Of a DNA stretch of 44,507 nucleotides, positions 6,393 through 44,507 are shown in pieces (within the stretch, counting starts at the first letter, position 1; the number at the start of each line of letters is the position of its first letter). The stretch lies in IMG/VR virus record IMGVR_UViG_3300027887_000021, positions 1 through 44,507 of that record; one strand, given 5' to 3'. The stretch is from a virus (Duplodnaviria > Caudoviricetes). Under the pieces are notes generated by a model that was not told the DNA's origin, did not search any database, and saw nothing but the letters and a program-made list of their open reading frames with translations. The translations under genes and the position numbers were made by a program.

Positions 6393-9300
6393 CTATTAGC
6401 TACGGATCAATAACCACTACCCCTGCTACAGGGACAACGAGTTTATCGGTTGCGTATCCGAGCAGCATTTCTGCCGGTAATCTTTTATTGTTGGTTGTTG
6501 CTGTCCGGTATTCAGGCTCATCAGTAGATACTCCCTCAGGTTGGAATCTTGTATCTGGCAGTTCAGGGTGGGGGAGTGGTACAGATGGTGCCGATGCAGG
6601 TTATGCCGGTTGTTGGGTATTCTCAAAAGTAGCTACAGGTTCTGAGTCTGGAAGCTTATCTGTCTCTTGCCCCTCCAGTAATAGTTCCATAGGTGTAATT
6701 TTACGCTATACAAAGTCTACTGGTGGTACTTGGTTAATAGATGGTTCTTCTTCTGGGGATTCAACTCCAGACACGAGTTGGACTTCCTACTCTGGGACTG
6801 CGGATACGTCCCCTACCGGTAAGGTGTATGTCGTCTGCTCTGGCATAAACACGGACGCTACATCCTACACAAGCCATTCTTTAACAAAATCTGGTGTCAC
6901 CTTTGGCACTGGGGCAGAAAGACTTGACACGGTAAGTTCCACGGGCAGTGACTGTGGTTTGGTCATTTGGGAGCAAGAGGTTACCAGTGGCAATTTGACT
7001 AGTACTTTTATTCAGTACTCAGCCACTGCTAGTGCCACTAAGAACAACTACCCCGCTGGCACCGTAACTTTTGCAGGCTTGTTGGAAGCCTTGTACAAAG
7101 AAGTATCTGGTAGTGGTGGGGCAAAAACTGGAGGGTCGGCTACTACTGGTAAATTCACCCCGCCATTAGTTATGTCTGGCGGGGGTATTGGTGGTGGTTC
7201 AGCCACTACACAATATGCCCCACTACAAGTAATTGTTGCCTATGTTGCTTATCGATATCCGTCACAAACGTATTCGATAAAGACTTATATTGGTGCTGGT
7301 GGTCTTTTAGCAAGCGGCTCAGCAACCACTGAAAGAATTCAAGGACAGTTATCGATTGATATAACAGGTTCCGGCGGCATCGTTGCCGGTGGTGTAGCTT
7401 CTGCCAATGAGGTGGATGTCTATACCGTCCTCGGCGGGGCAAAAGCTGGGGGTAGTGCAACTACAAGCATTATCAAAATCTATGGCTATGTGGCTTCCGG
7501 TGGAGTGGTTAGTACTGGGACTGCTACTACTCTCAAGGCCAAAGTCTTTGCTGTAGCTGGTGGTGTGCTTTCCTCTGGCGTTGCTCTCACTACTAAGAGC
7601 AAAGCAGTCGAAGGGCTTGGTGGTCTCCTGGCTTCTGGGGCCGCACAAGTCAGTGCGACCAAAGCATGGACCGGGATTGGTGGGGTGCTCGGAGGGGGTC
7701 AGGCAACGACCCTGCTTTCTGTTACCCATGTATATTCTGTCTCTGGCGGCATCCTTTCAACGGGTGCCGTTCTTGTTTCCCAGTCAAAGAGTCCTGCCAG
7801 TAGTGGTGGTGCTGTTGGTGCCGGTGCGGCTACCACTGAGAGGACTTTTGCGTATTTGTCTACCGGTGGTGCCATTGCCGGTGGGACAGTTTCTGCTTCC
7901 AAAACCAAGGCAACTACCGGAGAGGGTGGTGCAATTGCTGGTGGGTCGGCCACAACCTCACTGGCTTTGTCTTACGTTTACCAAGCTTTGGGTGGGCTGG
8001 TTGGTTCTGGCACTGCTGGCCTAAGTGTAACCGTTGCAATTAATGCAACGGGTGGAGTGCTAGGGTCTGGTGCCGCAGACACCTCTACCATCGTTATTCA
8101 CTTCTACGATGGTTCCGGTGGGATCGTTGGTGGTGGGTCAGCCATCACTACACCAAAGATTGTACGCACCTACTCTTCTGCGGGAGGAGTGGTTGGTGGT
8201 GGTGCCAGTGAAATCAGTGTCACTCAGTCCCCGGTTGTATCTGGCGGGGCTGTTGGTGGTGGCTCTGCAATCACTGAGGCTCAGCGGGTCTACCCCTATG
8301 CCGCAACCGGAGGGTTGGTTGTTGGTGGTGCTGCCTCTTTCCAGTGGATCAATCTCACTGAGACCGTAGGTGGTGTGACCCTTGCTGGGTCTGCCACCAT
8401 TGGGTGGACTCGCATTAGAGAAGGGTCGGGTGGTGCGGTCCTCGGTGGCTATGCCCTGGTTGGCAATACGGCTCAGTACACCTACCCCGTATCCGGGGGG
8501 TTGTTAGTTGGTGGTGCTGCGGAAGTAGAAAAGACCCAGGACCTTGCTGCAACCGGAGGCTTGATCCTTGGTGGCTCTGCAGAGCACTCAAACACCAAGA
8601 GCTATAACGCTTCCGGTGGGTTGGTCGCTGGGGGCTCTAGCACAGTATCAACTTCTGTTTCGGGAACTTCCTCCGGTGGTTCGGTAATTTCCGGTACGGC
8701 AGACGTTGCCGGAACAAAAGCATACTCGGCCTTAGGCACGATCCTCTTAGGGACCTTAACGACCTTTGTCATAACGAAGTCCCCCACTACGTTAGGTGGG
8801 GGTGTGGTAGGAGGTGATGCACTCACTGAACTGGTCTCCTCTTCAAGTAACGTCTACTCGGGTGATGGTGGCAGCATTGTATCCGGCTCCGCAGAGAGGA
8901 GTTGGACGAAATCGAGTGCCGGTGATGGTGGTCTGGTCCTTTCTGGTTCGGCTGACCATGCTCACAACTTCCAATTCGTCGGCTTGGGTGGTTTACTTGT
9001 CAGCGGTAGTGCCGAGTATGCGGAGAGTAACGTCGCTGTTGCGGCGGGAGGGGTTACCCTCGGAGGTTCTGCAAACTCCTCTTTCTCCGTAGGCACTACC
9101 TCTTACGCATACACCGGTTCCGGAGGCATCCTTGCTTCCGGGCAAGCCACTACTTCTCTCGCCGCACATTACTCTCCTCTTGTCGAGGGAGGACTTCTGC
9201 TCTCTGGAGCGGCAATCTTCTCCCTTGACAGGAGCCCCCCGAGTGCGGGTGGGGTGGTGATCGGGGGTGCTGGTGCAATCAGCATCACTGCTGAGCCCCC

Positions 9301-22217: not shown

Positions 22218-22482
22218 AGAGGTGGTACACAAGGACAAAAGTACATCCAAGAAGGAGACCGAGCTGCCTTTCGAGCATGACGGTGATGGTGCAATGGCCG
22301 AGGTGGGTATCGTGTTGGGTCGCACCGTGAACCTGCAGAATTACGAGTCGGCCAGGGTCTCCGTCTCTATCAAGATGCCTTGCCCTCCAGAGGACCTGGA
22401 TGAGACCTTTGAAACCATTCAGTCTTGGGCGGATGAGCGTGTGGGGCAACTGTTGGACGAGATCATGGGATCAAAGCAGTGA
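22171..22482 (+). CDS. conserved phage hypothetical protein
   Basis: GGAG RBS; TVNLQNYESARV motif typical next to phage recombinases. Confidence 0.65.
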   Translation: MPVKIVKKGHSGSVVEEVVHKDKSTSKKETELPFEHDGDGAMAEVGIVLGRTVNLQNYESARVSVSIKMPCPPEDLDETFETIQSWADERVGQLLDEIMGSKQ

Positions 22483-23528
22483 AGGTCGCCCAGATCGTCA
22501 AGCAGGTTCAGAAGGAGCATGGGGAAAAGATTGGAGGCTTGGGGCACCAGTATCCTGAGGCTCCCAGGCTGCCTACAGGCATCTTTGAGCTGGACCTGAT
22601 GCTGGGGGGAGGCTTCCCCCGAAGTCGTCTCTCACAGCTCTACGGGGCCGAGTCGTCTGGTAAGACGATGCTGGCATATCTCCTCATCGCTGAGACGCAA
22701 CGTCGAGGTCTGGCAGCGGTGCTGCTCGATGTCGAGGGGACCTACGATGCAGCCTGGGCAAAAAAGTGCGGAGTCGATCCCGATGCCCTGGTGGTGTTGG
22801 AGCCCAACACGGTAGAGCAGTGTAGCGACATCGCTGAGGACTTTGCCTATGCCGATGATCTGGGGCTGCTCATCGTAGACTCGGTAGCGGCTCTTCTTAC
22901 TCAGAACGAGTTGGAGTCTGAGACAGGCAAGATGGCTGTGGGTGGCAGCGCACTGCTTGCTACTCGCATGATGAAGAAGATGATGACGGCACTGAAGAAG
23001 GCCCGGAGCAATGGTATCGATCCGGCTATCCTGCTCATCAATCAGATCCGCACGAAGGTGGGTGTGTTGTATGGCGACACCGAAAGTCTTCCCGGAGGCA
23101 ATGCCGCCAAATTTTTTCCCACGCTGAATGTGCGACTGCACGCAAAGAAGAAGGTTGACAAAGCGGTGCATCCTTCTCTCAATACGTGGGCAACTACGAC
23201 GGCTACCATTAAGAAGGCAAAGCTTCCGCACACCTCTTTATCCTGCGAGTTCGACCTCTGTCTGTATGAGCATGAGGGGTTGCAGGTAGGGCAGACTGAC
23301 TCGTGGAAGCTGGCGCACAACTTGATGCGAGGGCATGGCATCATTACGAAGGTCGGCACTACCTACGAATACGATGGCATGACGTTTCCTACTCTGTCTG
23401 CCCTCCGAGAGCTGTACCGCACTGATCCAGTGATGCGGGCAGGGATGCAAGACAAAGTGGTGGCAGCGGTCAAATCGAGTCCTCCTCCGAAAAATGCAGA
23501 GTCCGAAGCAGCAGAAGAAAGCGAGTGA
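22479..23528 (+). CDS. recA: RecA/UvsX-like recombinase
   Basis: PTGIFELDLMLGGGFP, GAESSGKT, IVDSVAAL, INQIR, PGGNA. Confidence 0.93.
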   Translation: MKVAQIVKQVQKEHGEKIGGLGHQYPEAPRLPTGIFELDLMLGGGFPRSRLSQLYGAESSGKTMLAYLLIAETQRRGLAAVLLDVEGTYDAAWAKKCGVDPDALVVLEPNTVEQCSDIAEDFAYADDLGLLIVDSVAALLTQNELESETGKMAVGGSALLATRMMKKMMTALKKARSNGIDPAILLINQIRTKVGVLYGDTESLPGGNAAKFFPTLNVRLHAKKKVDKAVHPSLNTWATTTATIKKAKLPHTSLSCEFDLCLYEHEGLQVGQTDSWKLAHNLMRGHGIITKVGTTYEYDGMTFPTLSALRELYRTDPVMRAGMQDKVVAAVKSSPPPKNAESEAAEESE

Positions 23529-23859
23529 AGGGTCAGGTAGTGCGGGCAGGAATAACGAGCGCATTAAGGCTCAGCGTCTTCGCGCTGTTCGTACTCCTGG
23601 TTCTGGTGTTTTTGCTGGAGCTAAGGGTGATATGCAGGTAGGAGATTTCCTCCTGGAGAACAAGAGCACGAAGAATCGCTCACTGGGAGTGAGCCTTGCG
23701 TGGCTGACCAAGATAGCGCACGAGGCAGCGATGAAGGGCAAGGTCCCCGCATTGTCTGTGTCGTTCACCACTGAGTCCGGTGTAGACGTTGATGATGGGT
23801 CTTGGGTGATGGTGCCTGAATGGTGGTTCAGAGATGCACTTGACAAAGAATCTGCCTAA
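23494..23859 (+). CDS. PD-(D/E)XK Holliday-junction-resolvase-like endonuclease
   Basis: E...RTPGSG...KGD...LLENK. Confidence 0.65.
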   Translation: MQSPKQQKKASEGSGSAGRNNERIKAQRLRAVRTPGSGVFAGAKGDMQVGDFLLENKSTKNRSLGVSLAWLTKIAHEAAMKGKVPALSVSFTTESGVDVDDGSWVMVPEWWFRDALDKESA

Positions 23860-24712
23860 GGCTTTTTCCCTGGTGGACATGCTGCACGGGGTGCTTGGCG
23901 GCAAAGTACCTGCCCGGCCTTACACCACTATTCGTGCGTCAGCAGTCACCAAGCAGGACCTCGCCTTTTGTCCGCGAGAAGTAGCCATCCTGGATTTGAA
24001 GAAGCAGAAGCCGAAGGACGAGTACATCGCTCCGGCTACCAAGGTGGCGTTTGAGCAGGGTGAATCACTGCATCATCTTGCTCGCAACAACTGGCTCAGG
24101 TCAGTTGCTATCGGGGATTGGAAGTGTCCGATGTGCGGGCACAAGCACTACTTCACTCTTGCTCCTAAAGCCGATTGTCCGAAGTGCGGGATGAAGGGCT
24201 CTGCCTTTCTCTACTCCGAAGTGGAGATAAAGAGCGAGCATTACATCTGGGGCAATCTGGATCTCATCATCGATGAAGGGCTGGACAAGCACTGCATGGT
24301 CGAGATCAAGACCATCGATAAGGACCAGTTCAAAGAACTCAAGATGCCTCTCGCAGAACACCGTCTTCGCACTAATTTGTACCTGGAGTTAATTCGTACT
24401 TCTACTCTTCCCGAGAAGGACCACATCAATCAGGACTACGCTCGCATCCTCTACATCTCGAAAGGCTACGGGGCTAAGAACGATGACGGCAAGGTGTCTC
24501 CCTTCCGCGAGTTCAAGGTGTCCTACGAGCTTAGCCTTCTGAAGCCGTACATCGAGAAGGCACAACTCGTGAAGCTGTTCCGTGAGACCGGCAAGATCCC
24601 CAAGCGCATTTGTCCATCTGCTATGGGTCCGCGAGTGAAAGCGTGTTCAGTCGGTGCCGACTGTTGGAGTGCCACGTATCCTGAGGGGGCAGTGTGCAAG
24701 TTCTCGGACTAG
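23834..24712 (+). CDS. Cas4-like PD-(D/E)XK exonuclease with Zn-finger insert
   Basis: CPR...G..LH, GNLD, VEIKT, three C-terminal Cys; CPMC/CPKC insert. Confidence 0.75.
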   Translation: MHLTKNLPKAFSLVDMLHGVLGGKVPARPYTTIRASAVTKQDLAFCPREVAILDLKKQKPKDEYIAPATKVAFEQGESLHHLARNNWLRSVAIGDWKCPMCGHKHYFTLAPKADCPKCGMKGSAFLYSEVEIKSEHYIWGNLDLIIDEGLDKHCMVEIKTIDKDQFKELKMPLAEHRLRTNLYLELIRTSTLPEKDHINQDYARILYISKGYGAKNDDGKVSPFREFKVSYELSLLKPYIEKAQLVKLFRETGKIPKRICPSAMGPRVKACSVGADCWSATYPEGAVCKFSD

Positions 24713-25212
24713 ATCCCAGTACCAAGACTGGCTGGGCAATTGTGAAGGTGGATACTGCGGGTGTCATCCAGCATGAGACGGGTGTCGAATCCTTTTTCGG
24801 TACTGGCATCCATCGTATGCGGCAGGTTGCTGATTGGGTGTCGGTGTTCCTTTATGACTACAACAGCAGTCCTTTCGATCTGGTGGTCATCGAGGGCTAC
24901 GCCTATTCCAACTTCCACACTCTAGCAACGCTTGTGGAGATCGGCACAGCTTTGCGCCTGGGTCTCGATCATGCAGACTATCCATACCTCGATGTTTCGC
25001 CGACTTCCCTGAAGAAGTTTGTGACCGGCAAAGGCAACGCGAAGAAGGATCTCGTGATGAAAGAGATCTACAAGCGATGGGGGACCGAGTTTGACACCAC
25101 CGATGAGGCTGATGCCTTCGGTCTTGCCATGGTGGGGGTAGCGGTCCTGGACAAATCTCCAGTTTTTTTTACAGCAGATCAGCGTAAACTCGCTAGATCG
25201 CTTGGGAAATGA
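24694..25212 (+). CDS. ruvC: RuvC-like Holliday junction resolvase
   Basis: LGLDPS, VIEG, LKKFVTGKGNAKK, DEADA. Confidence 0.9.
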   Translation: MQVLGLDPSTKTGWAIVKVDTAGVIQHETGVESFFGTGIHRMRQVADWVSVFLYDYNSSPFDLVVIEGYAYSNFHTLATLVEIGTALRLGLDHADYPYLDVSPTSLKKFVTGKGNAKKDLVMKEIYKRWGTEFDTTDEADAFGLAMVGVAVLDKSPVFFTADQRKLARSLGK

Positions 25213-33312: not shown

Positions 33313-33492
33313 ATGGCAGCCTTTCTTTGCATGTGGTTTGAGGACCAGGATGGCAATTGGGATACCCAGTGCGGGCACAAGTTCACTTTCACTGATGGTG
33401 ATCCCGAAGCCAATGGCTTCGAATATTGTCCCTACTGTGGCAAGACCCTAGTGGAATCACCCCATGAGCCAGACGACAGACCTGACACCTAA
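33313..33492 (+). CDS. small Zn-ribbon protein
   Basis: WDTQCG...FEYCPYCG. Confidence 0.6.
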   Translation: MAAFLCMWFEDQDGNWDTQCGHKFTFTDGDPEANGFEYCPYCGKTLVESPHEPDDRPDT

Positions 33493-33922
33493 AACCTCGC
33501 TCTACCTTGAGCTGTGGGGGGCAAACTCTAATGGCGACCAATACCTAGCCCTCTCCTTCCCCTTCAAGTTCTACGCAACCCCCCAGGTAGTACCTCTCAT
33601 TGTCACTCAAGCCCTGCTTTTCCCGATGGTGCAAATCTGTCGGCAAGATACCGAAGACATTCTCTTCCTCACTAACCTCAACAATGTGGGCAAGGTAGTC
33701 ACTAAAGGTAGCGATGCAGAGGTTCTAATCCCCGTAGACGCTATCAAAGCGTACTACCTAACCCATCCCCCTATGCATTTCCCCCAGGTCCTGCCTACCT
33801 ACTACATCCCCCATGTGGGCATAACCCTAGATCTGCGCCCCTGCCTGTACAAATACAAAGGCACCCCCTTCCACTATCCGTACTACAACACCCCTCCCTA
33901 TACACACATTCCCTTAGAATAA
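33464..33922 (+). CDS. hypothetical protein
   Basis: 152 aa ORF in C-rich DNA. Confidence 0.45.
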   Translation: MSQTTDLTPKTSLYLELWGANSNGDQYLALSFPFKFYATPQVVPLIVTQALLFPMVQICRQDTEDILFLTNLNNVGKVVTKGSDAEVLIPVDAIKAYYLTHPPMHFPQVLPTYYIPHVGITLDLRPCLYKYKGTPFHYPYYNTPPYTHIPLE

Positions 33923-33979
33923 TTGTTAGACTATAATCCCTCACATTACATCACCCTCATTGTCAACGGAATCGCGGGC

Positions 33980-34870
33980 ATGAAGTTAGGCAAACGTCCC
34001 CCAGGCAGACCCAAGAAAGACTATCAGAAAGACATACAGAAGATTCAGCATATCTCTAATTTGCTCTCTTCTTCTAAGCCCACTCAGCCCACGAAGAAAG
34101 CACTCAAGTTCACTAAAGCACTCAAAGAGTATGCGGGCAAATCCGACACCGATCTTCTAAAACTCTCCGCGCCTATTGACGATACGCGAGAATTCGGCGA
34201 ACGCGCAGAAGTAGAATCACCCGATGCAAGACTCGTTTATATCCATAGAGCCCTACTCAGAAACGATACTCCCCAAGAGATAGCTAAAGCACTAAAGATC
34301 TCAGTCCCCCAGGTATACAAGTTCAGGCAGCAACTGCTCAGTGCAATTAGATGCACTGTGGATACCCTCGATCTACCCCTCACTATAGGAGAGACCCTGC
34401 ACTTCTACGAGCACTGTAAGTCTACAGCCCTCAGATACGCAGATCCCGATGCACTCACATCCCCCCGGCTCAAGCTAGAGGCAATCAGGACAGCACTATC
34501 AGCAGAGAAGGACAAGACTACATACATGCAATTAATTGGCATATACAACAACAACCTCAACCAGGACCTGTCTCTGTCGTTCTCTTCTCTTCACTCCAAA
34601 GCCGATATCATAGAACAGGCAGAGGCATCCCCTGACAACATACAGCTACTCGTTTCACATCTCAAAGAGATTGCCCAGCAACGGCAATCCCCCTCCCCAG
34701 TGACATCAAGTTCACTTATTCCAGAACATACCGATATTAATCCTCTTCAATACGACACTTCCGATGATATGCCACATCCTACCGAGGATATGCCCGCCCT
34801 CGACCCCCTCGATCCGGGCTATCCGGGTGATAATGAGATCACTTTCGAGCCCCCGCCAGACGAGATTTAG
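33980..34870 (+). CDS. putative terminase small subunit (HTH)
   Basis: GRPKK motif, HTH TPQEIAKALKISVPQVYK, acidic tail; upstream of terL; start uncertain. Confidence 0.55.
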   Translation: MKLGKRPPGRPKKDYQKDIQKIQHISNLLSSSKPTQPTKKALKFTKALKEYAGKSDTDLLKLSAPIDDTREFGERAEVESPDARLVYIHRALLRNDTPQEIAKALKISVPQVYKFRQQLLSAIRCTVDTLDLPLTIGETLHFYEHCKSTALRYADPDALTSPRLKLEAIRTALSAEKDKTTYMQLIGIYNNNLNQDLSLSFSSLHSKADIIEQAEASPDNIQLLVSHLKEIAQQRQSPSPVTSSSLIPEHTDINPLQYDTSDDMPHPTEDMPALDPLDPGYPGDNEITFEPPPDEI

Positions 34871-34902
34871 TATTACCCCAGTAATACTCGGCCCCTCCAG
34901 GC

Positions 34903-34930
34903 ATTTAACATAATAGCGATTATGCGTAAT
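34903..34930 (-). other. dif-like XerC/XerD recombination site
   Basis: minus strand reads ATTACGCATAA-TCGCTA-TTATGTTAAAT; XerD arm identical to E. coli dif, XerC arm 8/11. Confidence 0.85.
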
Positions 34931-35120
34931 TCTAAAAACGCTTATGAACCCACTGAATCAAGCACTTACAGAGCACTTCGAAAATTATTCAGCGTAATAC
35001 TGATCTATACAGTACGTAAGTTATTGATTCTTCGTAGCGCGACCTGGGCACTCTCCCCGGCTCGGCGTAACACCCAGCTCGGTCCCGGCTCGTTGCCTCT
35101 AACGCTGGGAGCCCAGGCCA

Positions 35121-35184
35121 GGGGGGAACCCAAATCAAAAAAGACCCCCCTGATGAGGGGGGTGCAATTATTTGGGACCCCCCC
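35121..35184. repeat. 64-bp imperfect palindrome
   Basis: G6..CCCAAAT..ACCCCCCT-GATG-AGGGGGGT..ATTTGGG..C6. Confidence 0.75.
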
Positions 35185-35214
35185 GCTGAGGCGAGTGAAA
35201 TTATTGAAGTGCTG

Positions 35215-35607
35215 ATGAGACAGGTATTAAAGGGTGGGGGGTGCTTTCGGGTCCCCAGTAAACATCTGCGGCTGGTGTGGCACTGGGATTACTATGACCA
35301 CCCCTTGAAGGGGTTGTGTCGGGTAAACGGGAGGTTAATGAGGTTTGAGAGAGCCTACGGTGCAGCGAAGTACCGGGTGTATGAGCTGAGTAGGTGGCAG
35401 AAGATCAGGGTCCTGGTACACAAGGCTATCTTTGAGGTGTGTGTCGGCAGGCATTGCAGTTACCCGGATCGGTTAGAGGGAGTGAGATTTCACTTGCGGG
35501 GTAGGACTCATTCTTTGTTGATGTGGGGGTACTACCGTGCCCGCCGACTCTTTCCTCAGGCGTTTCATCCTTTCCAGAGCTTTCCAATTGGAAAAGGGAA
35601 GAGATGA
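35215..35607 (+). CDS. hypothetical protein
   Basis: plausible protein composition (WHWDYYDHPLKGLC...FEVCVG.H.SYP); start uncertain. Confidence 0.55.
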   Translation: MRQVLKGGGCFRVPSKHLRLVWHWDYYDHPLKGLCRVNGRLMRFERAYGAAKYRVYELSRWQKIRVLVHKAIFEVCVGRHCSYPDRLEGVRFHLRGRTHSLLMWGYYRARRLFPQAFHPFQSFPIGKGKR

Positions 35608-35748
35608 AATGTGTTAGTGCAATTTTTTTTAGTGGGGTCTGGAGGATAAGTGATATTGATTGCCCAACTTTTCTTATCTGGCTCTATTCGGGCGATTTTC
35701 CCTGTTCCGGAACTTCACTTGACTTTTTCGATTCTGTACTGTCGGGAA

Positions 35749-35812
35749 TAACTTGGGGGGTAACCTGGGGGGTACTTGTGGGGTACTTGTGGGGTGTTGC
35801 CGGGGTACTTTG
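35749..35812 (+). repeat. 11-12 bp G-rich tandem repeat
   Basis: TAACTTGGGGGG, TAACCTGGGGGG, TACTTGTGGGG x2, TGTTGCCGGGG, TACTTTG. Confidence 0.8.
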
Positions 35813-36196
35813 CCGTCCGTAGGTACGTTGTTCCACGCTTTAACATAAGAATTTTTACTATATGTAACTCATTGATTTGCAAAGGAAAGCAGGGTGTGTA
35901 TGGGGGGAGTTGCGTGGAACTATGCCGAGGGTACACTAGAGGGTGGGTTGGTAAGTTATTGATTTATAAGGGAGTGTATTCTGGAGAGGTTTTGAGGTCT
36001 ACGCATTTAAGCTAAATAAAAAACACTTAATTATTGGTAATGAAATCAACGACTTACAGAGGTGGCGCGGGGTGTGGTGGAGATAACTCATTGATTTGTA
36101 ACGAGAAGTTTTTCCAGCCAAAGAATCCTATCCCCGTCAACCAAATTCTGCTGATGGGAATTTACGTCATTAATTGCACTGAGTGATACTAATATC

Positions 36197-38044
36197 ATGG
36201 ACATGGCTTCAATCTCTGCTGCGACGTTGACTCGACTCCGTGCCCACGCCAAGGCGCAGAAAGACCCACAACAGAAACAAGTGTGGTATCGGGCGATTGA
36301 CGAGTTTGACTCGGGGTTTGACACCAGGGAGTTGGTTTATCTCATTCAGGTGAAGGAGTACCCGGTTTCGTTTGAGGAGTTCATGTTCGGGGACAAGTTC
36401 CTTGCCCGCCCCAAGGATGAGATCTACCCAGCAGTGCTGGAAGAGCTAATCAAGATCAACAACCCAGGCGAGAAGCGGCTGTCGAATCCGTACACGGAGA
36501 TTGTTCTGACCGGAGGTATTGGTTCGGCGAAGACGACGACAGCTCTCTATACGCTTGCCTACCAGTTGTATGTCTTATCGATGTTTCCCTCTCCTCACTC
36601 GACCTTCGGCATGGACTCGACCTCCGAGATCCTGTTCGTGTTCCAGTCTCTCTCTGGGATACTCGCTAAATCTGTCGATTACGCTCGCTTCAAAGCGATC
36701 ATGGATCAGTCCGTGTACTTTCACCGGGAGTTTCCGTATCGGACAGACCTGGAGTCAGAGTTAAGGTTCCCGAATCGCATTATCGTAAAGCCCATCTCTT
36801 CTGATATCGGAGCGATTGGTCAGAACGTGATTGGTGGGCTAATAGACGAGGTCAACTTCATGTCGTTGGTCGAGAAGTCGGTCAAGAACGTGGACCGGGG
36901 TACGTATGATCAGGCTCTGCAGATCTACAACGGTATCGCGAGACGAAGGAAGAGTCGTTTTCTACAGCAAGGATCGATGCCGGGAGTGCTCTGTCTTGTC
37001 TCGTCCAAGAAGTACCCTGGCGAATTCACCGACATGAAGATTGCAGAGGCGCAGAAGGACCCGACGATCTACATCTACGACAAATGCGTATGGCAGATCA
37101 AGCCGCCCAATACGTTTTCAGGGAAGTGGTTCAAGGTGTTCGTGGGCGACATGTCCCGCAAGCCACGAATACTGGAGGACGGTGATCCTCTGTTAGTAGA
37201 GGACAAGCTGGTCAAGGACATTCCTATCGAGTACCGCAAGGAATTCACCAACGACATTATCGGTTCACTGCGGGATATCGCGGGTGTCTCCACTATGGCG
37301 AGGCACCCGTTTATTCTGGATGTGGATAGAGCATCGAAATGCTTTGGTACGCACAAGTCGATCTTTTCCCTGGAGGAGACGGATTTCCAGTCGTCTATTC
37401 TGCATCTGTTTCCGGGTAGGACGAAGGAGCATCAGTATCCACGGTGGGCACACGTTGACCTGGGCTTGACGAATGATAGCTGCGGTCTGGCGATTGGATA
37501 TTGCCCAGGTTTCAAGGCGCAAGAGTTTGAGGGCAATGAAGAGCTGATGCCCATCGTGCATATCGACGGTTTGCTGCGGATAACGCCACCTCCGAATGGC
37601 GAGATTTTGTTTCATAAGGTAAGAGAGATCCTGTACCAGTTGCGGAACAAGGGTATACCGATCCGGTGGGTGAGCTTCGACACATATCAGAGTGTGGACT
37701 CGGTGCAAACGCTGAAGCAGCGGGGATTCATGGCGGGCAACGTGACGCTGGATAAGACCACGGCTCCCTACGAGTTTCTGAAGATGGCTTTGTACGATCA
37801 ACGAGTGTTCGCGCCCACGCACGAGAAGTGCGTCGAGGAGCTGCTGTCTTTGGAGCGGGACCTGAAGCGGGGCAAGATCGATCACCCACCGAATGGCAGT
37901 AAGGACGTTGCCGATGCGTTGGCGGGAGTGGTGTATGGCATCACGATGCGTCGAGAGACTTGGCACCAGCACCGGGTGCAGATTTCGGTTGCGCTCACCA
38001 ACTACATCCGTAAAATCGAGCAGGCTAAGCGAACAGTCGCGTAG
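36197..38044 (+). CDS. terL: terminase large subunit
   Basis: Walker A GGIGSAKT, Walker B LIDE, nuclease HVDLG, FD.YQS, KIDHPPNGSKDVADA. Confidence 0.92.
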   Translation: MDMASISAATLTRLRAHAKAQKDPQQKQVWYRAIDEFDSGFDTRELVYLIQVKEYPVSFEEFMFGDKFLARPKDEIYPAVLEELIKINNPGEKRLSNPYTEIVLTGGIGSAKTTTALYTLAYQLYVLSMFPSPHSTFGMDSTSEILFVFQSLSGILAKSVDYARFKAIMDQSVYFHREFPYRTDLESELRFPNRIIVKPISSDIGAIGQNVIGGLIDEVNFMSLVEKSVKNVDRGTYDQALQIYNGIARRRKSRFLQQGSMPGVLCLVSSKKYPGEFTDMKIAEAQKDPTIYIYDKCVWQIKPPNTFSGKWFKVFVGDMSRKPRILEDGDPLLVEDKLVKDIPIEYRKEFTNDIIGSLRDIAGVSTMARHPFILDVDRASKCFGTHKSIFSLEETDFQSSILHLFPGRTKEHQYPRWAHVDLGLTNDSCGLAIGYCPGFKAQEFEGNEELMPIVHIDGLLRITPPPNGEILFHKVREILYQLRNKGIPIRWVSFDTYQSVDSVQTLKQRGFMAGNVTLDKTTAPYEFLKMALYDQRVFAPTHEKCVEELLSLERDLKRGKIDHPPNGSKDVADALAGVVYGITMRRETWHQHRVQISVALTNYIRKIEQAKRTVA

Positions 38045-38538: not shown

Positions 38539-39132
38539 ATGTCTTTTGACGAGATCTATCTGCAGATCGTCGGCAAGACCCTGGTGTCGAGGGATCGTTG
38601 TCTTGCGTTGTACAACCTTGCTAAATCGTGTGCTCTGCTGCCAGGATGTTTTTACGAGTGCGGTGTCTACAAAGGTGGCACCGCATTTTTGTTGGCGCAG
38701 TTCGGCAAGACCCTGAAGCTGTTCGATTCGTTTGAAGGTCTTCCTGAGCCAAACGAGTACGACCTACACAAGAAGGGTGACTTCGCCGACACGAATGCCA
38801 AAGAGGTGGCTCGTTGGTTGTCGTTTCCCAACGTGGAGATACATCAGGGATGGTTGCCGTACACGTTTCCCGAGACCGATCTGATTGCCTTTGCCCATGT
38901 GGATGTGGACCTGTATCAGTCGGTGTGGGACTGCTGCGAGTTCATCGTGCCTCGACTGGCGCAGAGCGGAGTCATCGTGTTCGATGACTATGGTTTTCCT
39001 TCGTGCCCTGGTGCAAAGAAAGCGGTAGACGATTGGTTTGGAAACTACGAGGGCACTCCGGATAGAGTGCAACGGCTACCCACGGGTCAAGCGGTGTACA
39101 TCCAGTATCGAGAACCTCGCGATGACTACTAG
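38539..39132 (+). CDS. TylF/MycF-family O-methyltransferase
   Basis: ECGVYKGG, FDSFEGLP, HVDVDLY, FDDY. Confidence 0.88.
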   Translation: MSFDEIYLQIVGKTLVSRDRCLALYNLAKSCALLPGCFYECGVYKGGTAFLLAQFGKTLKLFDSFEGLPEPNEYDLHKKGDFADTNAKEVARWLSFPNVEIHQGWLPYTFPETDLIAFAHVDVDLYQSVWDCCEFIVPRLAQSGVIVFDDYGFPSCPGAKKAVDDWFGNYEGTPDRVQRLPTGQAVYIQYREPRDDY

Positions 39133-39304
39133 GGTCTTGTATCGAGTAGTGGGGACATTTCCTGATGGTAGTGAAAGATTTTTGGGGAGCTTTGTCACGC
39201 TAGAAAAGGCACAGACAAAGATCGCATTGCTGCGTCAAGGATGTTCACCCTGCGCTAAAAAAAGCTACGGAGAGCTAAAGGTTGTCGAAGTGGTTGTGCC
39301 ATGA
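39122..39304 (+). CDS. small hypothetical protein
   Basis: overlapping coupled ORF. Confidence 0.5.
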   Translation: MTTRVLYRVVGTFPDGSERFLGSFVTLEKAQTKIALLRQGCSPCAKKSYGELKVVEVVVP

Positions 39305-39720
39305 GGACCTGTGCAGGTTGCACGCTGTGCTGCAAAGTCATGGCTGTCGCCTCGATTCAAAAACCGGTGAAGCAATGGTGCGTGCATTGCGACACTTCTT
39401 CCGGATGCTTGATTTATGAGGATAGGCCCGCCGAGTGTCGCACGTTCAACTGTCTGTGGCTGGGTTCTGATAACGAATGGCAAAAGCTGTTAGCTGACTG
39501 TAAGCCAGACAAGGTGAAGTTCCTCTTGACCTGGGAGGAAGACATTCAATCTATCGTAGTGCATCCAGACCCTGGCTATCCGCACCAGTGGCTGGAGAAG
39601 CTCAGTGTGTTGGTGCCGATTGGTAATCAGCTTTCACTGGTGGTGGTATCTGGTAAAAAGGTCCTGGGGATAGGCAGCAAGTCGCAAGAGAAGTATGGTG
39701 TTGTCGATGAAAACTTGTGA
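39301..39720 (+). CDS. YkgJ-like Cys-cluster (Zn/Fe) protein
   Basis: CAGCTLCC...C.HC...GC.IYE.RP.ECR.F.C. Confidence 0.8.
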   Translation: MRTCAGCTLCCKVMAVASIQKPVKQWCVHCDTSSGCLIYEDRPAECRTFNCLWLGSDNEWQKLLADCKPDKVKFLLTWEEDIQSIVVHPDPGYPHQWLEKLSVLVPIGNQLSLVVVSGKKVLGIGSKSQEKYGVVDENL

Positions 39721-40096
39721 CGGCTGCATGGCTTGCTGTGTGGCTTTCGATATTCCGGAATTGGGGAAGAAGAAAGGGGAGCCCTGTCCCTGGCAACAGG
39801 AGGGGTGCAGTCATTACGAAGAGCGTCCCCAACGCTGTCGCATCTTCTCCTGCCTTTATCAGCAGGAGCAGTTGGGGTTTGGAGAGATGTTCCCTCCAAA
39901 GGTTGGATTCTTTGCTGGGTATAACGTCACTACGGAAACTCTGGATGTCTTTCCAGATCCGCAGCATCGATCTGTGTGGAAACGCTTTCTGCCTCGCCTT
40001 AGGAGGCTAGGGAAGACGTTTCCAATTATGGTAGTCTCTCCCGAGACAGTGCAGCCTCTGGGAGAGAAGGCTAAGATGATACGGATTGTCAGATGA
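39707..40096 (+). CDS. YkgJ-like Cys-cluster protein, paralog
   Basis: CDGCMACC...GCSHYEERPQRCRIFSC. Confidence 0.8.
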   Translation: MKTCDGCMACCVAFDIPELGKKKGEPCPWQQEGCSHYEERPQRCRIFSCLYQQEQLGFGEMFPPKVGFFAGYNVTTETLDVFPDPQHRSVWKRFLPRLRRLGKTFPIMVVSPETVQPLGEKAKMIRIVR

Positions 40097-40283
40097 AATC
40101 GATCCTCTTCTCTTCAAACATTCTGCGGTCTGCAAACTCCTGTTGCTTGCCTGGATTCCACTCGGTTACTGGACGATGATATCCCATGACACGGGACCAG
40201 ATTTCACAGCGGGTCCTTTCACTATTGTCTAGCTCAATCACCTTCTTCTGTACTGGGAGTGTAGCGGTGGTGGGTATGGTCAT
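40089..40283 (-). CDS. stand-alone NrdD C-terminal (glycyl-radical loop) mini-protein
   Basis: CEIWSRVMGYHRPVTEWNPGKQQEFADR; minus-strand GAGGA RBS. Confidence 0.8.
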   Translation of the reverse strand: MTIPTTATLPVQKKVIELDNSERTRCEIWSRVMGYHRPVTEWNPGKQQEFADRRMFEEKRIDFI

Positions 40284-40440
40284 GCCGTCGATCCTCAACA
40301 ATGAGTCGATTGAGAAGGTCCCTAGCCTGGAACCAACACGCAATCTCACCCGTGCGTAACAGGTGGCAGATATGTTCCAGGGCTCGATGAATTTCAAGGC
40401 TATTCACTGAACCAGTCTACACCTGCCTAAGGCTCTCTTC

Positions 40441-41421
40441 ATGGACCTCAAAGACTTCTCTACTAAACGACTTGCCGGTATCGTGATCCTCTGCACAGGT
40501 GGTCGAGGCGACCTCGTGAACACGGAACCTGCGCTTCGGTACTTCGTCAACAAGGCATTTCTGCACACTCCCGTGATCATCGTCTCTGAGCTGCCTGAGC
40601 TGTTTCGGCACCTGGAGAGCGAACGGGTTACTTCGGTGTCAAAGCAGGAAGCTAGGGAATCAGATGAGGATTGGGCTCATCACGGGATACTGTTCAACAA
40701 CAATCACCAGAAGGGGCTGGTACGAGGGCTCAATCAGCCACTGATGCATGGTGTCGATAACGCAGCGATCTACCTGTTGGGTTACACACTGCCCAATGCG
40801 GACAAACGAGTGAAGCTTCCTCCTCCTTCGCAGGAAGAGATCGAGTCGTTCAGAGACAAGCTGTCTCGCTATGCCTTGGTTCCCGAGGAGACCCTGCTCA
40901 TTCATGCAGGAGATACCTGGCAGACTCGCACAATCCCTGTTGAATGGTGGGACGAATTCATTGGTGCTTATCCTTACCCCGTCTGTCTGATCGGCATCTC
41001 CAATCCGACGAAGGAAGAAGAGGCTCGCTTCTGCAACAAGGGCAAACACGTTCGTGCCGTTCTACAGCTTCCCAAGGTAGCGTCCCTGGTCAATGAGCTG
41101 TCCATACGCGAGACCGTTGTTGCCGTCTCGCAGTGCTGGGGGCTCATCACCAATGATTCGCTACCCGTGCATATCGCGGGAGCGTTTACCAACTACCTGT
41201 TCACGGCTGCTACTTCGAAGCACTGGGACAACCTCAAGCCGTATGGTCACCGACGCTCATACAACTTCGGCAAAGAAGTCTTTGGGCCTTCGTGGCACTC
41301 CAAGATCGATGTGGTGTGGAGCTTCGAAGAGTTTCCCGAGGGCGTAGACAGTTTGTTGCCTTACCTTGATCCTCCCACCAAAGTGGCTGATCTCGTTGCT
41401 TCCAAATACGAGGGGTTGTGA
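40441..41421 (+). CDS. glycosyltransferase family 9 (heptosyltransferase-like)
   Basis: GGRGDLV, IHAG..W..R, LITNDSLPVHIAGA. Confidence 0.8.
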   Translation: MDLKDFSTKRLAGIVILCTGGRGDLVNTEPALRYFVNKAFLHTPVIIVSELPELFRHLESERVTSVSKQEARESDEDWAHHGILFNNNHQKGLVRGLNQPLMHGVDNAAIYLLGYTLPNADKRVKLPPPSQEEIESFRDKLSRYALVPEETLLIHAGDTWQTRTIPVEWWDEFIGAYPYPVCLIGISNPTKEEEARFCNKGKHVRAVLQLPKVASLVNELSIRETVVAVSQCWGLITNDSLPVHIAGAFTNYLFTAATSKHWDNLKPYGHRRSYNFGKEVFGPSWHSKIDVVWSFEEFPEGVDSLLPYLDPPTKVADLVASKYEGL

Positions 41422-42365
41422 TGCCTCCCAATCTGCTCATCCTGTGCCATGGAGGACGAGGCGACATCGTCAACTCGGAACCTCCGGTTCGCTACCTTGT
41501 CGAGAAAGTGTTTCATCAGTCGGAGAAGATCGCAATCTCTTCCGAGTTCACCGAGCCCTTTGAACATCTGCAGAGCGAGCAGGTATCGCTTTACCTCAAC
41601 GAGTACACTTACGAGCACATGGCTGAGGAGTTTCTTGGCTACACCGTGTTGTGTGCTTTCGAGCATGACAAGAGACCCGTGCATGGTCTCAATCAGCCGA
41701 TGATGCATGGGGTGGACTATGCTTCGCTGCATTTGTTGGGATACATGCCGCCGGAGAAATACCGAAGAGTGCGGCTGCTGCCTCCCAGCAAGGAAGAAGT
41801 GGAAGCCATGCAGCAGTCTTTCGCAGAGCTGGGCCTGGACCTCACTCGCACGCTACTCATTCATCCGGGGCAGACCTGGGAGACCAGAACGATACCTGCC
41901 GAATGGTGGAAGGTTTTTTTGGAAAGCTATCCCTATCCAGTCTGCGTCATTGGTAGCAGTGATCTGCGGGTGTGTGGGGACAATCAATTGGTCAGAGGGT
42001 TGTTACCTGCCACTGGAGTTCCTTCCATGGCGAACAAGCTTACGATCCGAGGCTCCATCGTTGCCATCTCGCAAGCCAAGGGTCTGCTTACCAACGACTC
42101 TTACCCGTTACACGTAGCAGGAGCTTTCGATAATTACCTCTTCTATTTCGCCACCACTAAAGACGAGGCTGCTCTCAAGCCATATGGGAGAAAGAGAGCC
42201 TACAACTTCTCCAAGAACGTGATCCCCGACGACTGGTATACGCATCTAGACATCAAGGTGGACTTCAACGTCTTTCCTCCCGGTGTCACCAGCTTGATGC
42301 CCTTTCTCATGCACCCGAAGGAAGCGGCACGTTTCATACAAGAGTGTTTCGACTTCGGAGGCTGA
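41418..42365 (+). CDS. glycosyltransferase family 9, paralog
   Basis: GGRGDIV, IHPG..W..R, LLTNDSYPLHVAGA. Confidence 0.8.
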   Translation: MMPPNLLILCHGGRGDIVNSEPPVRYLVEKVFHQSEKIAISSEFTEPFEHLQSEQVSLYLNEYTYEHMAEEFLGYTVLCAFEHDKRPVHGLNQPMMHGVDYASLHLLGYMPPEKYRRVRLLPPSKEEVEAMQQSFAELGLDLTRTLLIHPGQTWETRTIPAEWWKVFLESYPYPVCVIGSSDLRVCGDNQLVRGLLPATGVPSMANKLTIRGSIVAISQAKGLLTNDSYPLHVAGAFDNYLFYFATTKDEAALKPYGRKRAYNFSKNVIPDDWYTHLDIKVDFNVFPPGVTSLMPFLMHPKEAARFIQECFDFGG

Positions 42366-42366
42366 C

Positions 42367-42945
42367 ATGCTGGAGACATCGAAGACCATCATGCGTCGGT
42401 TGTCGGACAGTCGTTTTCTCTCGCGCTACTTCGTTGGCGAAGGCATAGACATTGGTGCGGGCAATGATCCGTTAGCCAGCTATGCACAACTGTTCCCGCT
42501 ATGTCGAGGAGTCCGGTCCTGGGATATCAAGGATGGTGATGCCCAATACATGCATGGAGTGGACAACAGCTCTTACGACTTCGTGCATTCCTCGCACTGC
42601 CTGGAGCACATGATCTCTCCCGAGCAAGCGTTGTGGTCCTGGTGGAACATCTTGCGCCCCAACGGACACTTGATTATCTTGGTGCCAGACGAAGACCTCT
42701 ACGAGCAAGGACAATGGCCGAGTCGATTCAATCCTGATCACAAGCACACGTTCACCATCTACAAGAAGAAGTCCTGGAGTCCCGTGAGCGTGAACGTCAT
42801 CTCTTTAATCGAGACACTGCAACGCTGTGAGACGATCAAGATAGAGCTGCTGGATGCTTCGTACCGTAGGTCCAACCAGCTAGTCGATCAGACTACGACG
42901 CCAATCGGTGAGTGTGCAATTGAGATCATTCTGAGGAAGCGATGA
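42367..42945 (+). CDS. class I SAM-dependent methyltransferase
   Basis: GIDIGAG, YDFVHSSHCLEH, LRPNG. Confidence 0.85.
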   Translation: MLETSKTIMRRLSDSRFLSRYFVGEGIDIGAGNDPLASYAQLFPLCRGVRSWDIKDGDAQYMHGVDNSSYDFVHSSHCLEHMISPEQALWSWWNILRPNGHLIILVPDEDLYEQGQWPSRFNPDHKHTFTIYKKKSWSPVSVNVISLIETLQRCETIKIELLDASYRRSNQLVDQTTTPIGECAIEIILRKR

Positions 42946-43379
42946 AGATCACTGACTTCGTTGGCATCGCTCAAGCGGTTGCTGCAAGGTCCAAGGACCA
43001 CTCGACCAAGGTGGGAGCCCTCATTATTGGTCCGGATTTCGAGATCCGGTCCACTGGCTGGAATGGCTTTCCGAGAGGAGTCATGGAATATGACTTCCGT
43101 ATCGACAATCGACAAACCAAGTACGCTTTTACTGCTCATGCTGAGCTGAATGCAGTGTGCAATGCTGCCCGAGTCGGGACCCCCACCAAAGATTGCGTGA
43201 TGCTAGTGACCTCGTTGCATCCCTGCCAGGAGTGCGCGAAAGCCATCGTGCAGGCTGGCATTAAGACCGTCTACGCGCCTAAGGATCGTGACGCGGAGGC
43301 GGCGATGCGTTGGGACCAGTCGGCGGGGGTTGCCGGGGAGATTCTGGAGGAAGCTGGCGTAAGCGTAATCTGGTATTGA
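42942..43379 (+). CDS. dCMP deaminase
   Basis: RSKD.STKVGA, GWNGFPRG, HAE, PCQEC. Confidence 0.92.
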   Translation: MKITDFVGIAQAVAARSKDHSTKVGALIIGPDFEIRSTGWNGFPRGVMEYDFRIDNRQTKYAFTAHAELNAVCNAARVGTPTKDCVMLVTSLHPCQECAKAIVQAGIKTVYAPKDRDAEAAMRWDQSAGVAGEILEEAGVSVIWY

Positions 43380-44349: not shown

Positions 44350-44507
44350 AGATCTAGCTCTGGCTGATCAAGTCATCGAAGAGCAGCGAGCCGAGATAGA
44401 ACGGCTACAGATAGACGTAGCTACTTTGCGTGAAGTGGTGCAAGACCGGCAAGAGGCAACAGATCATTGTCGGCAATTGTGGCAAAAGGTTACTGATGAG
44501 AACGAGC
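44339..44507 (+). CDS. coiled-coil protein, truncated by window end
   Basis: GGAG RBS; MAGEDLALAD...AEIERL, open to the end. Confidence 0.55.
   Translation, partial: MAGEDLALADQVIEEQRAEIERLQIDVATLREVVQDRQEATDHCRQLWQKVTDENE

Follow-up and report, generated by a model that had tools for sequence, protein, structure and literature searches.

What does a recombination site of the host XerC/XerD type do between the terminase genes of a tailed phage? Filamentous and small ssDNA phages are known to exploit XerCD, which they use to integrate at dif. To our knowledge, circle formation after injection is poorly settled for many phage groups with short terminal repeats. The window analyzed here is the whole 44,507-nucleotide stretch of the IMG/VR record IMGVR_UViG_3300027887_000021 (Caudoviricetes). 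In an initial annotation, this phage was thought to borrow host XerCD to resolve circular dimers or to integrate at dif, and the position of the site in the presumed packaging locus was called unusual.

Results

Features of the window and its dif-like site

The site has an 11-6-11 architecture with inner CATAA/TTATG (Table 1). Compared with GGTGCGCATAA TGTATA TTATGTTAAAT, which is E. coli dif as quoted in the initial annotation and is present in loci L024, L051, and L067, it is identical at 11/11 positions of the XerD arm, 8/11 of the XerC arm, and 3/6 of the center. The pattern GCATAA-N6-TTATGTTAAAT had a single match in the whole window with up to three mismatches allowed (0.10 expected by chance at three mismatches), and CGYATAA-N6-TTATGTTAAAT was produced by none of 200 base shuffles of the window. 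The sequence and these chance counts bear out the earlier description of a near-canonical dif with an exact XerD arm, an imperfect XerC arm, and a differing center. Xer recombination sites are defined by two 11-bp arms, a 6-8-bp center, palindromic inner 5 bp, and a best-conserved XerD arm (bioRxiv 2024.04.05.588136); by sequence, the window 28-mer has the core of such a site. It is not a chromosomal dif by center type or by converging KOPS: convergence on the site was not seen in the window, where the nearest KOPS (34691) is directed away, or in the relatives L138, L143, and L157. A promoter reading of the site was rejected, its single weak 9/12 match being at chance level.

The site starts 32 bp past the stop of the ORF 33923/33980-34870 and about 1.27 kb ahead of terL. 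The window TerL resembles those of the Stenotrophomonas phages DLP5, DLP3, and Summit and the Vibrio phages PG28 and VHS1 (48-52% identity). The likely TerS, which is also encoded on a 100,504-bp contig, gave no PHROG match and a weak match to PF13384 (E 0.004); PHROGs, Pfam, protein search, and ESM Atlas yielded nothing beyond an HTH. Its homologues stand directly ahead of terL in L001 and L158, and a five-sequence profile of it matches the gene preceding terL in PG28 (E 5e-6) and VHS1 (E 5e-3), with no match to the corresponding gene of DLP5. The reported location just downstream of terS agrees with this likely terS, a gene assigned by position and HTH only.

Using the IHF consensus, seven boxes were found in the window against 1.09 expected, and six of these lie within 34956-36096, in the 1.3-kb terS-terL gap. 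From 33,400 to 35,000 the GC skew is strongly negative, and from 35,100 to 36,100 it is strongly positive, so that a C-rich to G-rich flip coincides with the inferred terminus motif. The presence of RecA and resolvases was confirmed by a RecA/UvsX and two Holliday-junction resolvases. As the initial annotation had stated for the integrase, PF00589 was not found in the window, nor were ParA (PF13614) and ParB (PF02195); the viral record is about 49% complete, and the window thus represents about half a genome.

Two further stretches were noted. The region after terL (38539-43379) encodes methyltransferases, two GT9-like glycosyltransferases, two CxxCxxCC-type proteins, and a dCMP deaminase, and may serve DNA or host-surface modification; the DNA of DLP5 is reported to be heavily modified (PMC5834331). 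A short stretch at 44409-44438 is common to another contig in four assemblies, which probably belongs to a co-occurring relative.

Table 1. Positions of the Xer-type site and associated features in the window.
Feature	Position	Strand	Remark
Xer core site	34903-34930	minus	34930->34903 reads ATTACGCATAA TCGCTA TTATGTTAAAT
XerC arm	34930-34920	minus	
Xer site center TCGCTA	34919-34914	minus	
XerD arm	34913-34903	minus	
Conserved ~124-bp module around site	34878-35000	minus	edges are inverted CAGTATTAC / GTAATACTG motifs
IHF-consensus box WATCAANNNNTTR	34956-34968	plus	25 bp from XerC arm; candidate accessory site
Second IHF-consensus box	35017-35029	minus	inverted relative to first
Four more IHF-consensus boxes	35865-36096		ahead of terL
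Inferred packaging/terminus motif	35091-35163	plus	CGTTGCCTCTA + G6 run + C6/G6 hairpin
CGTTGCCTCTA	35091-35101	plus	
G6 run	35121-35126	plus	
C6/G6 hairpin	35144-35163	plus	
Likely terS	33980-34870 (possible upstream start 33923)	plus	HTH protein, by synteny; family not confirmed
terL, DLP5/VHS1/PG28 type	36197-38044	plus	48-52% identity
RecA/UvsX-like recombinase	22479-23528	plus	PHROG match
Holliday-junction resolvases, two	23494-23859 and 24694-25212	plus	PHROG matches
RecA/UvsX, Holliday-junction resolvase, exonuclease, RuvC-like resolvase	22479-25212	plus	phrog_97, 2002, 2506, 159

Conservation in related phages

A metagenome scan for the exact 24-mer of the site returned nine loci. Two of them (L139 and L142) are the window's own sequence and one (L137) equals L011; these were left out of the counts. 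L138 and L143 are true relatives, with TerL proteins 71% and 69% identical to that of the window and TerS-like proteins 31% identical; L157 is a third relative (TerL 69%). Together with the window they form one TerL clade with support of 100/99. In all three, the site lies between the terS position and terL (28/28 identical in L138, 27/28 in L143, center TCTCTA in L157), so that its place is kept in the terS-terL gap of the closest relatives, as the initial annotation had proposed to check. An IHF-like box stands at the identical 25-bp spacing in 4/4 members of this lineage. The three relatives also show the skew flip of the window, and CGTTGCCTCTA occurs twice in each.

The orientation of the site in the three relatives is opposite to that in the window, and the module is 77% identical to that of L138 over 124 columns in inverted orientation. 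The segment inverted between window 34878-35000 and L138:3927-4049 lies between inverted CAGTATTAC motifs, and may have been inverted long ago or still be invertible; no inversion joint was found among the contigs of the six assemblies examined.

The site was not seen in the nine other loci of the TerL tree. In L158 (TerL 59%), L001, DLP5, DLP3, Summit, VHS1, and PG28, the gene preceding terL abuts terL and the gap is absent. The five cultured phages among these have no dif-like site genome-wide at two mismatches, apart from one weak, chance-like match in VHS1. Sequence comparison suggests that the module was probably gained once in the clade of the window, L138, L143, and L157, and selected on both arms. 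Conservation of the site in the relatives, with both arms under selection, makes it likely that host XerCD acts on it. To this extent the claim that the phage borrows host XerCD is supported; of the two uses proposed with it, integration at dif is disfavored, among other things by the differing center.

Sites in cultured phages and terminal repeats

Similar sites occur in the mapped terminal repeats of cultured phages. In Hena1, GGTGCGCATAA GGTGTA TTATGTTAAAT occupies 289-316 of the direct terminal repeat, annotated as 519 bp, and recurs in the right copy. The site lies inside a 458-bp exact terminal repeat at both ends of YN3, in two places inside the annotated 459-bp repeat of Gotham, and at both ends inside a 210-bp terminal repeat (98.6% identity) of the Ralstonia phage RpT1. 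The terminal-repeat location in these four cultured phages is a direct observation, as are the window site, its conservation, and its position. BASEL phage Bas58 has a YN3-type site within a 2.5-kb non-coding gap. The rV5-like phages are lytic. At E<=0.05, the Hena1 site matches 198 places in 187 phage records. By short BLAST queries, sites of this kind were located in Vequintavirinae, Ralstonia T7-like phages, and Barba phages, and also in microviruses and inoviruses; two of the BLAST matches, Burkholderia phage Maja and Vibrio phage K303, were not matched by the arm patterns. The rV5-like Vequintavirinae, under the records MN732867 (L146/L147), PV763136 (L155/L156), MT682716 (L166), and MZ501073 (L148), have an unannotated dif-like site in their direct terminal repeats.

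The sites of the Vequintavirinae (Hena1, Gotham, YN3, Bas58) and of the Ralstonia phages RpT1 and phiITL-1 resemble the window site in having the same core in non-coding DNA, at the ends where these are mapped, and their centers (GGTGTA, TGGGTA, TAACCA, TCACCA) are also of non-host type. They differ in that these phages are unrelated to the window phage. The exact IHF box was not found within the Hena1 or RpT1 repeats, and the stretches examined around the Vequintavirinae sites have no annotation of a terminase gene.

The TerL of phiM5 is 55% identical to the largest metagenomic TerL group; its annotated 357-bp terminal repeat covers the ORF preceding terL, ends 35 bp ahead of terL, and closes with a C-run/G-run motif similar to the motif at 35091-35163 of the window. 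A loose scan found no dif-like site in the phiM5 terminal repeat or in MW202879. In phage C72C1, the site lies between the annotated terS and the TerL match. The temperate Klebsiella phage RCIP0034 (cI, cro, and an integrase-like ORF) has a degenerate site between the first two head-module genes. The Barba2A site lies among small genes and not near the terminase. In the group of Vibrio phage K303 (L151; 82 Vibrio records), a near dif-like match lies where genes converge, with a ParA gene 1.7 kb away, and may be a phage-plasmid resolution site.

Distribution among viral loci

The exact 24-mer occurs in four viral contigs, each time within 1.2 kb of an unrelated terL; among the ten distinct non-self viral and metagenome loci, seven lie within this distance of terL. 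A center-free arm pattern was then applied to 8/64 parts of the viral collection and gave 120 loci, from which about 1000 are estimated overall. The 80 loci with 3-kb flanks were analyzed, and 107 ORFs of at least 290 aa were scanned for terL; left out were the 40 loci without long flanks (L096-L135) and L046, the other end of the L032 contig. A terL was found within 3 kb in 37 of the 80 flanked loci, namely in 37/62 with a non-TGTATA center and 0/18 with TGTATA. The 18 TGTATA loci comprise 15 with rolling-circle Rep, Zot-like, or pIV genes, one with a microvirus capsid gene, and two tailed-provirus ends. The position beside the terminase genes is thus not unusual for viral dif-like loci, and it is a clue to the function of the site.

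Almost all terL-linked sites (36/37) lie 11-1610 bp upstream of terL, with a median of 544. They have 27 different centers and both orientations (21 opposite, 16 same). These 37 loci are not independent and fall into 14 groups at 70% TerL identity; with seven further proteins, the 44 TerL sequences form 14 clusters at 35-50% identity. An exact IHF box lies within 100 bp in 16/37 of them, against a background of 0.011 per 200 bp in the same loci, and in 3/18 TGTATA loci. In a partly dereplicated set of 37 loci, a C5/G5 run follows within 155 bp downstream in the terL orientation in 31 and upstream in 5; the window itself misses this test, with its own G/C-run motif 194 or more bp away. KOPS polarity was rejected as support: it pointed toward the site 14 times and away 0 times in 37 loci, and at 4:0 after dereplication was no stronger than that of control octamers. 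Distances to contig ends were left unused, since assemblies tend to break at the site wherever words are shared.

A PF00589 integrase is present in 2/43 terL-adjacent records (mostly fragments) and in 1/4 of those at least 90% complete. Both integrase-bearing records, G013 and the provirus G032, carry the site inside the head module, away from the integrase. G032 (L071) has two direct Xer-like sites 3.9 kb apart (C1:3476-3499 and 7376-7399), the first directly ahead of terL. In L079, a second dif-like sequence with a longer center follows in tandem about 30-60 bp past the first.

Comparison with host genomes

Among 185,579 genomes, the exact 24-mer occurs in one, an Acinetobacter in which it is one of two paired pdif sites and the dif, with TGTATA, is separate. 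The arm pattern was found in 60/201 Pseudomonadota genomes, with TGTATA in 23 and AT-rich variants in most others; apart from the Acinetobacter seed genome, the center TCGCTA was not found in the 200 sampled. The comparison of centers and the search for prophage junctions, both proposed in the initial annotation, therefore went against integration at dif: TCGCTA is unlike host-type centers, and no junction appeared in the genome scan or the assembled contigs, in a genome collection from which the host may be missing. Loose contig ends around the window site match the relatives L143/L138. Co-occurring 31-mer copies were rejected as a host dif, since their flanks match L143 and resemble L138.

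Three tailed proviruses, G248, G249, and G250 (L067, L092, L129), carry a canonical dif with TGTATA close to one end of the record and 15-16 kb away from terL, and may be tailed phages inserted at or near dif. Tailed-phage integration at or near dif thus seems to exist but looks different from the terL-linked sites. As separate observations, the Acinetobacter genome (L136/G047) has 28 Xer-like matches at one mismatch, with TCGCTA in pdif-type sites, and seven Pseudomonadota genomes (G137, G153, G173, G097, G129, G085, G073) have two inverted dif-like sites about 60-95 bp apart, with centers that are mostly GATGTA.

Discussion

The explanation that we rank first, circularization via terminal redundancy, was not considered in the initial annotation. 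The site likely lies within DNA repeated at the virion ends, and recombination between its two copies by host XerC/XerD would circularize the injected genome; we give this an even chance. For the window phage, a terminal location of the site is predicted from the putative cut motif and from comparison with other phages. A terminase cut near 35,120-35,160 would place the site, 190-260 bp upstream, in a short terminal repeat or terminal redundancy. After injection, two identical copies would then be present as direct repeats, and the center would need to be identical only to itself. Because exchange of the site with itself makes no other demand, center and orientation can drift, and the flip between the window and its relatives is permitted. 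With its box 25 bp off the XerC arm, IHF would aid synapsis and replace FtsK/KOPS control. A XerC-first exchange could be completed by the phage resolvases (22479-25212 block) or by replication; at cer, a cellular resolvase completes the XerC-first junction (PMC5357621). Multimers of the circle could later be resolved by the same site. A private center would hinder exchange with the host dif and cost nothing in exchange between its own copies.

Several points speak against circularization. Phage RecA could circularize the genome via a terminal repeat without Xer. The control of cer/psi depends on supercoiled circles (bioRxiv 2024.04.05.588136), and by this analogy an injected linear genome is no comparable substrate. 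Some cultured sites, such as those of K303 (beside ParA) and Barba2A, are not near the terminase. Since phiM5, DLP5, DLP3, Summit, VHS1, and PG28 have no site, it is dispensable for such packaging. Contig depth was set aside as a sign of ends: among the longer nodes, those covering 34,900-35,127 have the greatest depth in X4 (19.4 vs 7.5-8.8) and likewise in X5, X6, and X7, and stand at 9.44 vs 7.06/7.74 in X6 and 8.59 vs 6.39/7.09 in X7 (X4-X7 being assemblies of two samples), with no excess in X1 or X2, and the depth of assembled contigs cannot show ends.

The dimer resolution of the initial annotation would make this a cer/psi-like site, at which host XerCD resolves dimers, either of a prophage in the plasmid state or of circles that replicate, with the IHF block as accessory sequence. 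The relative DLP5 is a phagemid (PMC5834331), phage RecA would generate dimers, and the near-matching site of Vibrio phage K303 stands beside a ParA gene. In cer/psi, too, accessory sequences adjoin the XerC arm and plasmid centers are unconserved (bioRxiv 2024.04.05.588136). Such a role could be filled from any position and leaves unexplained why the sites follow terminase loci and terminal repeats, as they do in the rV5-like phages too; DLP5 and DLP3 do without the site, and the half-genome window has no ParA or ParB match. We consider this role unlikely as the main one. By analogy with loxP, which keeps P1 monomeric (PMC2409434), dimer resolution and circularization would not be mutually exclusive. 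The other use named in the initial annotation, integration at the host dif via XerCD from an IMEX-type attP, fits the absence of PF00589 from the half-genome window and its scarcity in the terL-adjacent records, and a canonical dif does lie close to the record end in three tailed proviruses. Gokushoviruses integrate with variable spacers (PMC7062461) and the VGJ-phi attP has four center mismatches (PMC5357621), so integration is compatible with a non-matching center. This reading seems to us quite improbable, given the near absence of the 24-mer and of TCGCTA from the genomes searched, loose contig ends that lead to L143/L138 and not to a host junction, and centers that vary freely between phages. 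Insertion at the site would also break up the packaging locus, with terS and terL driven apart, G013 and G032 have the site within the head module although they own an integrase, and the three proviruses are of a different class (TGTATA, 15-16 kb from terL).

The placement of the site among IHF boxes and the inferred cut motif would also suit binding or nicking only, whereby XerC/XerD at the genome end aid repeat duplication, terminase assembly with IHF, or shielding, without full recombination; the free center and free orientation are compatible with this as well. We see little chance of it, since neither the 6-bp spacing nor either arm has changed, which is what catalysis requires, the center is nearly fixed within the lineage (TCGCTA in three, TCTCTA in one), and no precedent was found. 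That the site is a relic, or a neutral passenger acquired with the intergenic module, might be argued from the many kin that manage without it. The 28/28 and 27/28 site identity in spite of diverged flanks and 31% identical TerS-like proteins, and the repeated, polar placement across 14 TerL clusters, make this highly improbable.

Circularization via host XerCD, if it applies to the window phage, may extend further. The window site is one example of an apparently widespread and undescribed use of host-type dif sites at phage ends. Tentatively, at somewhat less than even chances, host XerCD may be an unrecognized, widely used circularizing factor for unrelated tailed phages, including the lytic rV5-like and the Ralstonia T7-like phages. 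On an equally tentative footing, a dif with a private center in a terminal repeat or beside pac might be the host-enzyme version of P1 Cre/loxP. No report on Xer/dif in connection with terminase, terminal repeats, phage-plasmids, Vequintavirinae, or Ralstonia T7-like phages was found in the accessible literature, in which subscription journals are thinly covered; the main text of the BASEL paper does not contain the terms "xer" and "dif site" (PMC8594841). If true, common lytic coliphages with a dif mimic in their terminal repeats would represent a second, non-integrative use of XerCD. A dif-like site could then mark the genome ends of metagenomic phages by sequence, and caution would be due in taking such a site as a sign of lysogeny. 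The rV5-like coliphages (BASEL Vequintavirinae) make the circularization claim directly testable in E. coli K-12.

Comparison with known systems

The chromosomal dif/XerCD/FtsK system shares with the window site the XerD arm and the inner seven bases of the XerC arm, which are identical to the E. coli-type site; the window site differs in its center TCGCTA, in a nearest KOPS that is directed away, and in a local skew that flips from C to G. The IMEX attP sites (CTX-phi, VGJ-phi, TLC-phi, gokushoviruses, and GGI) are likewise phage-borne dif mimics for which an integrase is not needed. In contrast to these, the window phage is a dsDNA tailed phage of about 100 kb, its site lies in the packaging locus with a center unlike host-type dif, and a junction with host dif was not found for it.

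The plasmid sites cer (ColE1) and psi (pSC101) and the Acinetobacter pdif have in common with the window site an 11-6-11 core, conserved arms, a free center, and a conserved block on the XerC side; near matches to the site were found in 413 Acinetobacter plasmid records. The window site differs from them in lying on a tailed phage at the packaging locus and in being single, not a pdif pair. The cer/psi block spans about 180-200 bp with ArgR/ArcA boxes, whereas the window block spans about 70 bp with an IHF-type box.

In P1, loxP lies near pac, and Cre circularizes the terminally redundant DNA; the likeness to the window is a tyrosine-recombinase site on a tailed phage. The loxP site also keeps the P1 circle monomeric (PMC2409434). 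Unlike loxP, the window site is of the host XerCD type with IHF-consensus boxes, a type that also occurs in short fixed terminal repeats, and the window record, about half a genome, holds no PF00589 recombinase to act as Cre does. By this analogy, the window site would work like loxP but is no Cre/lox system.
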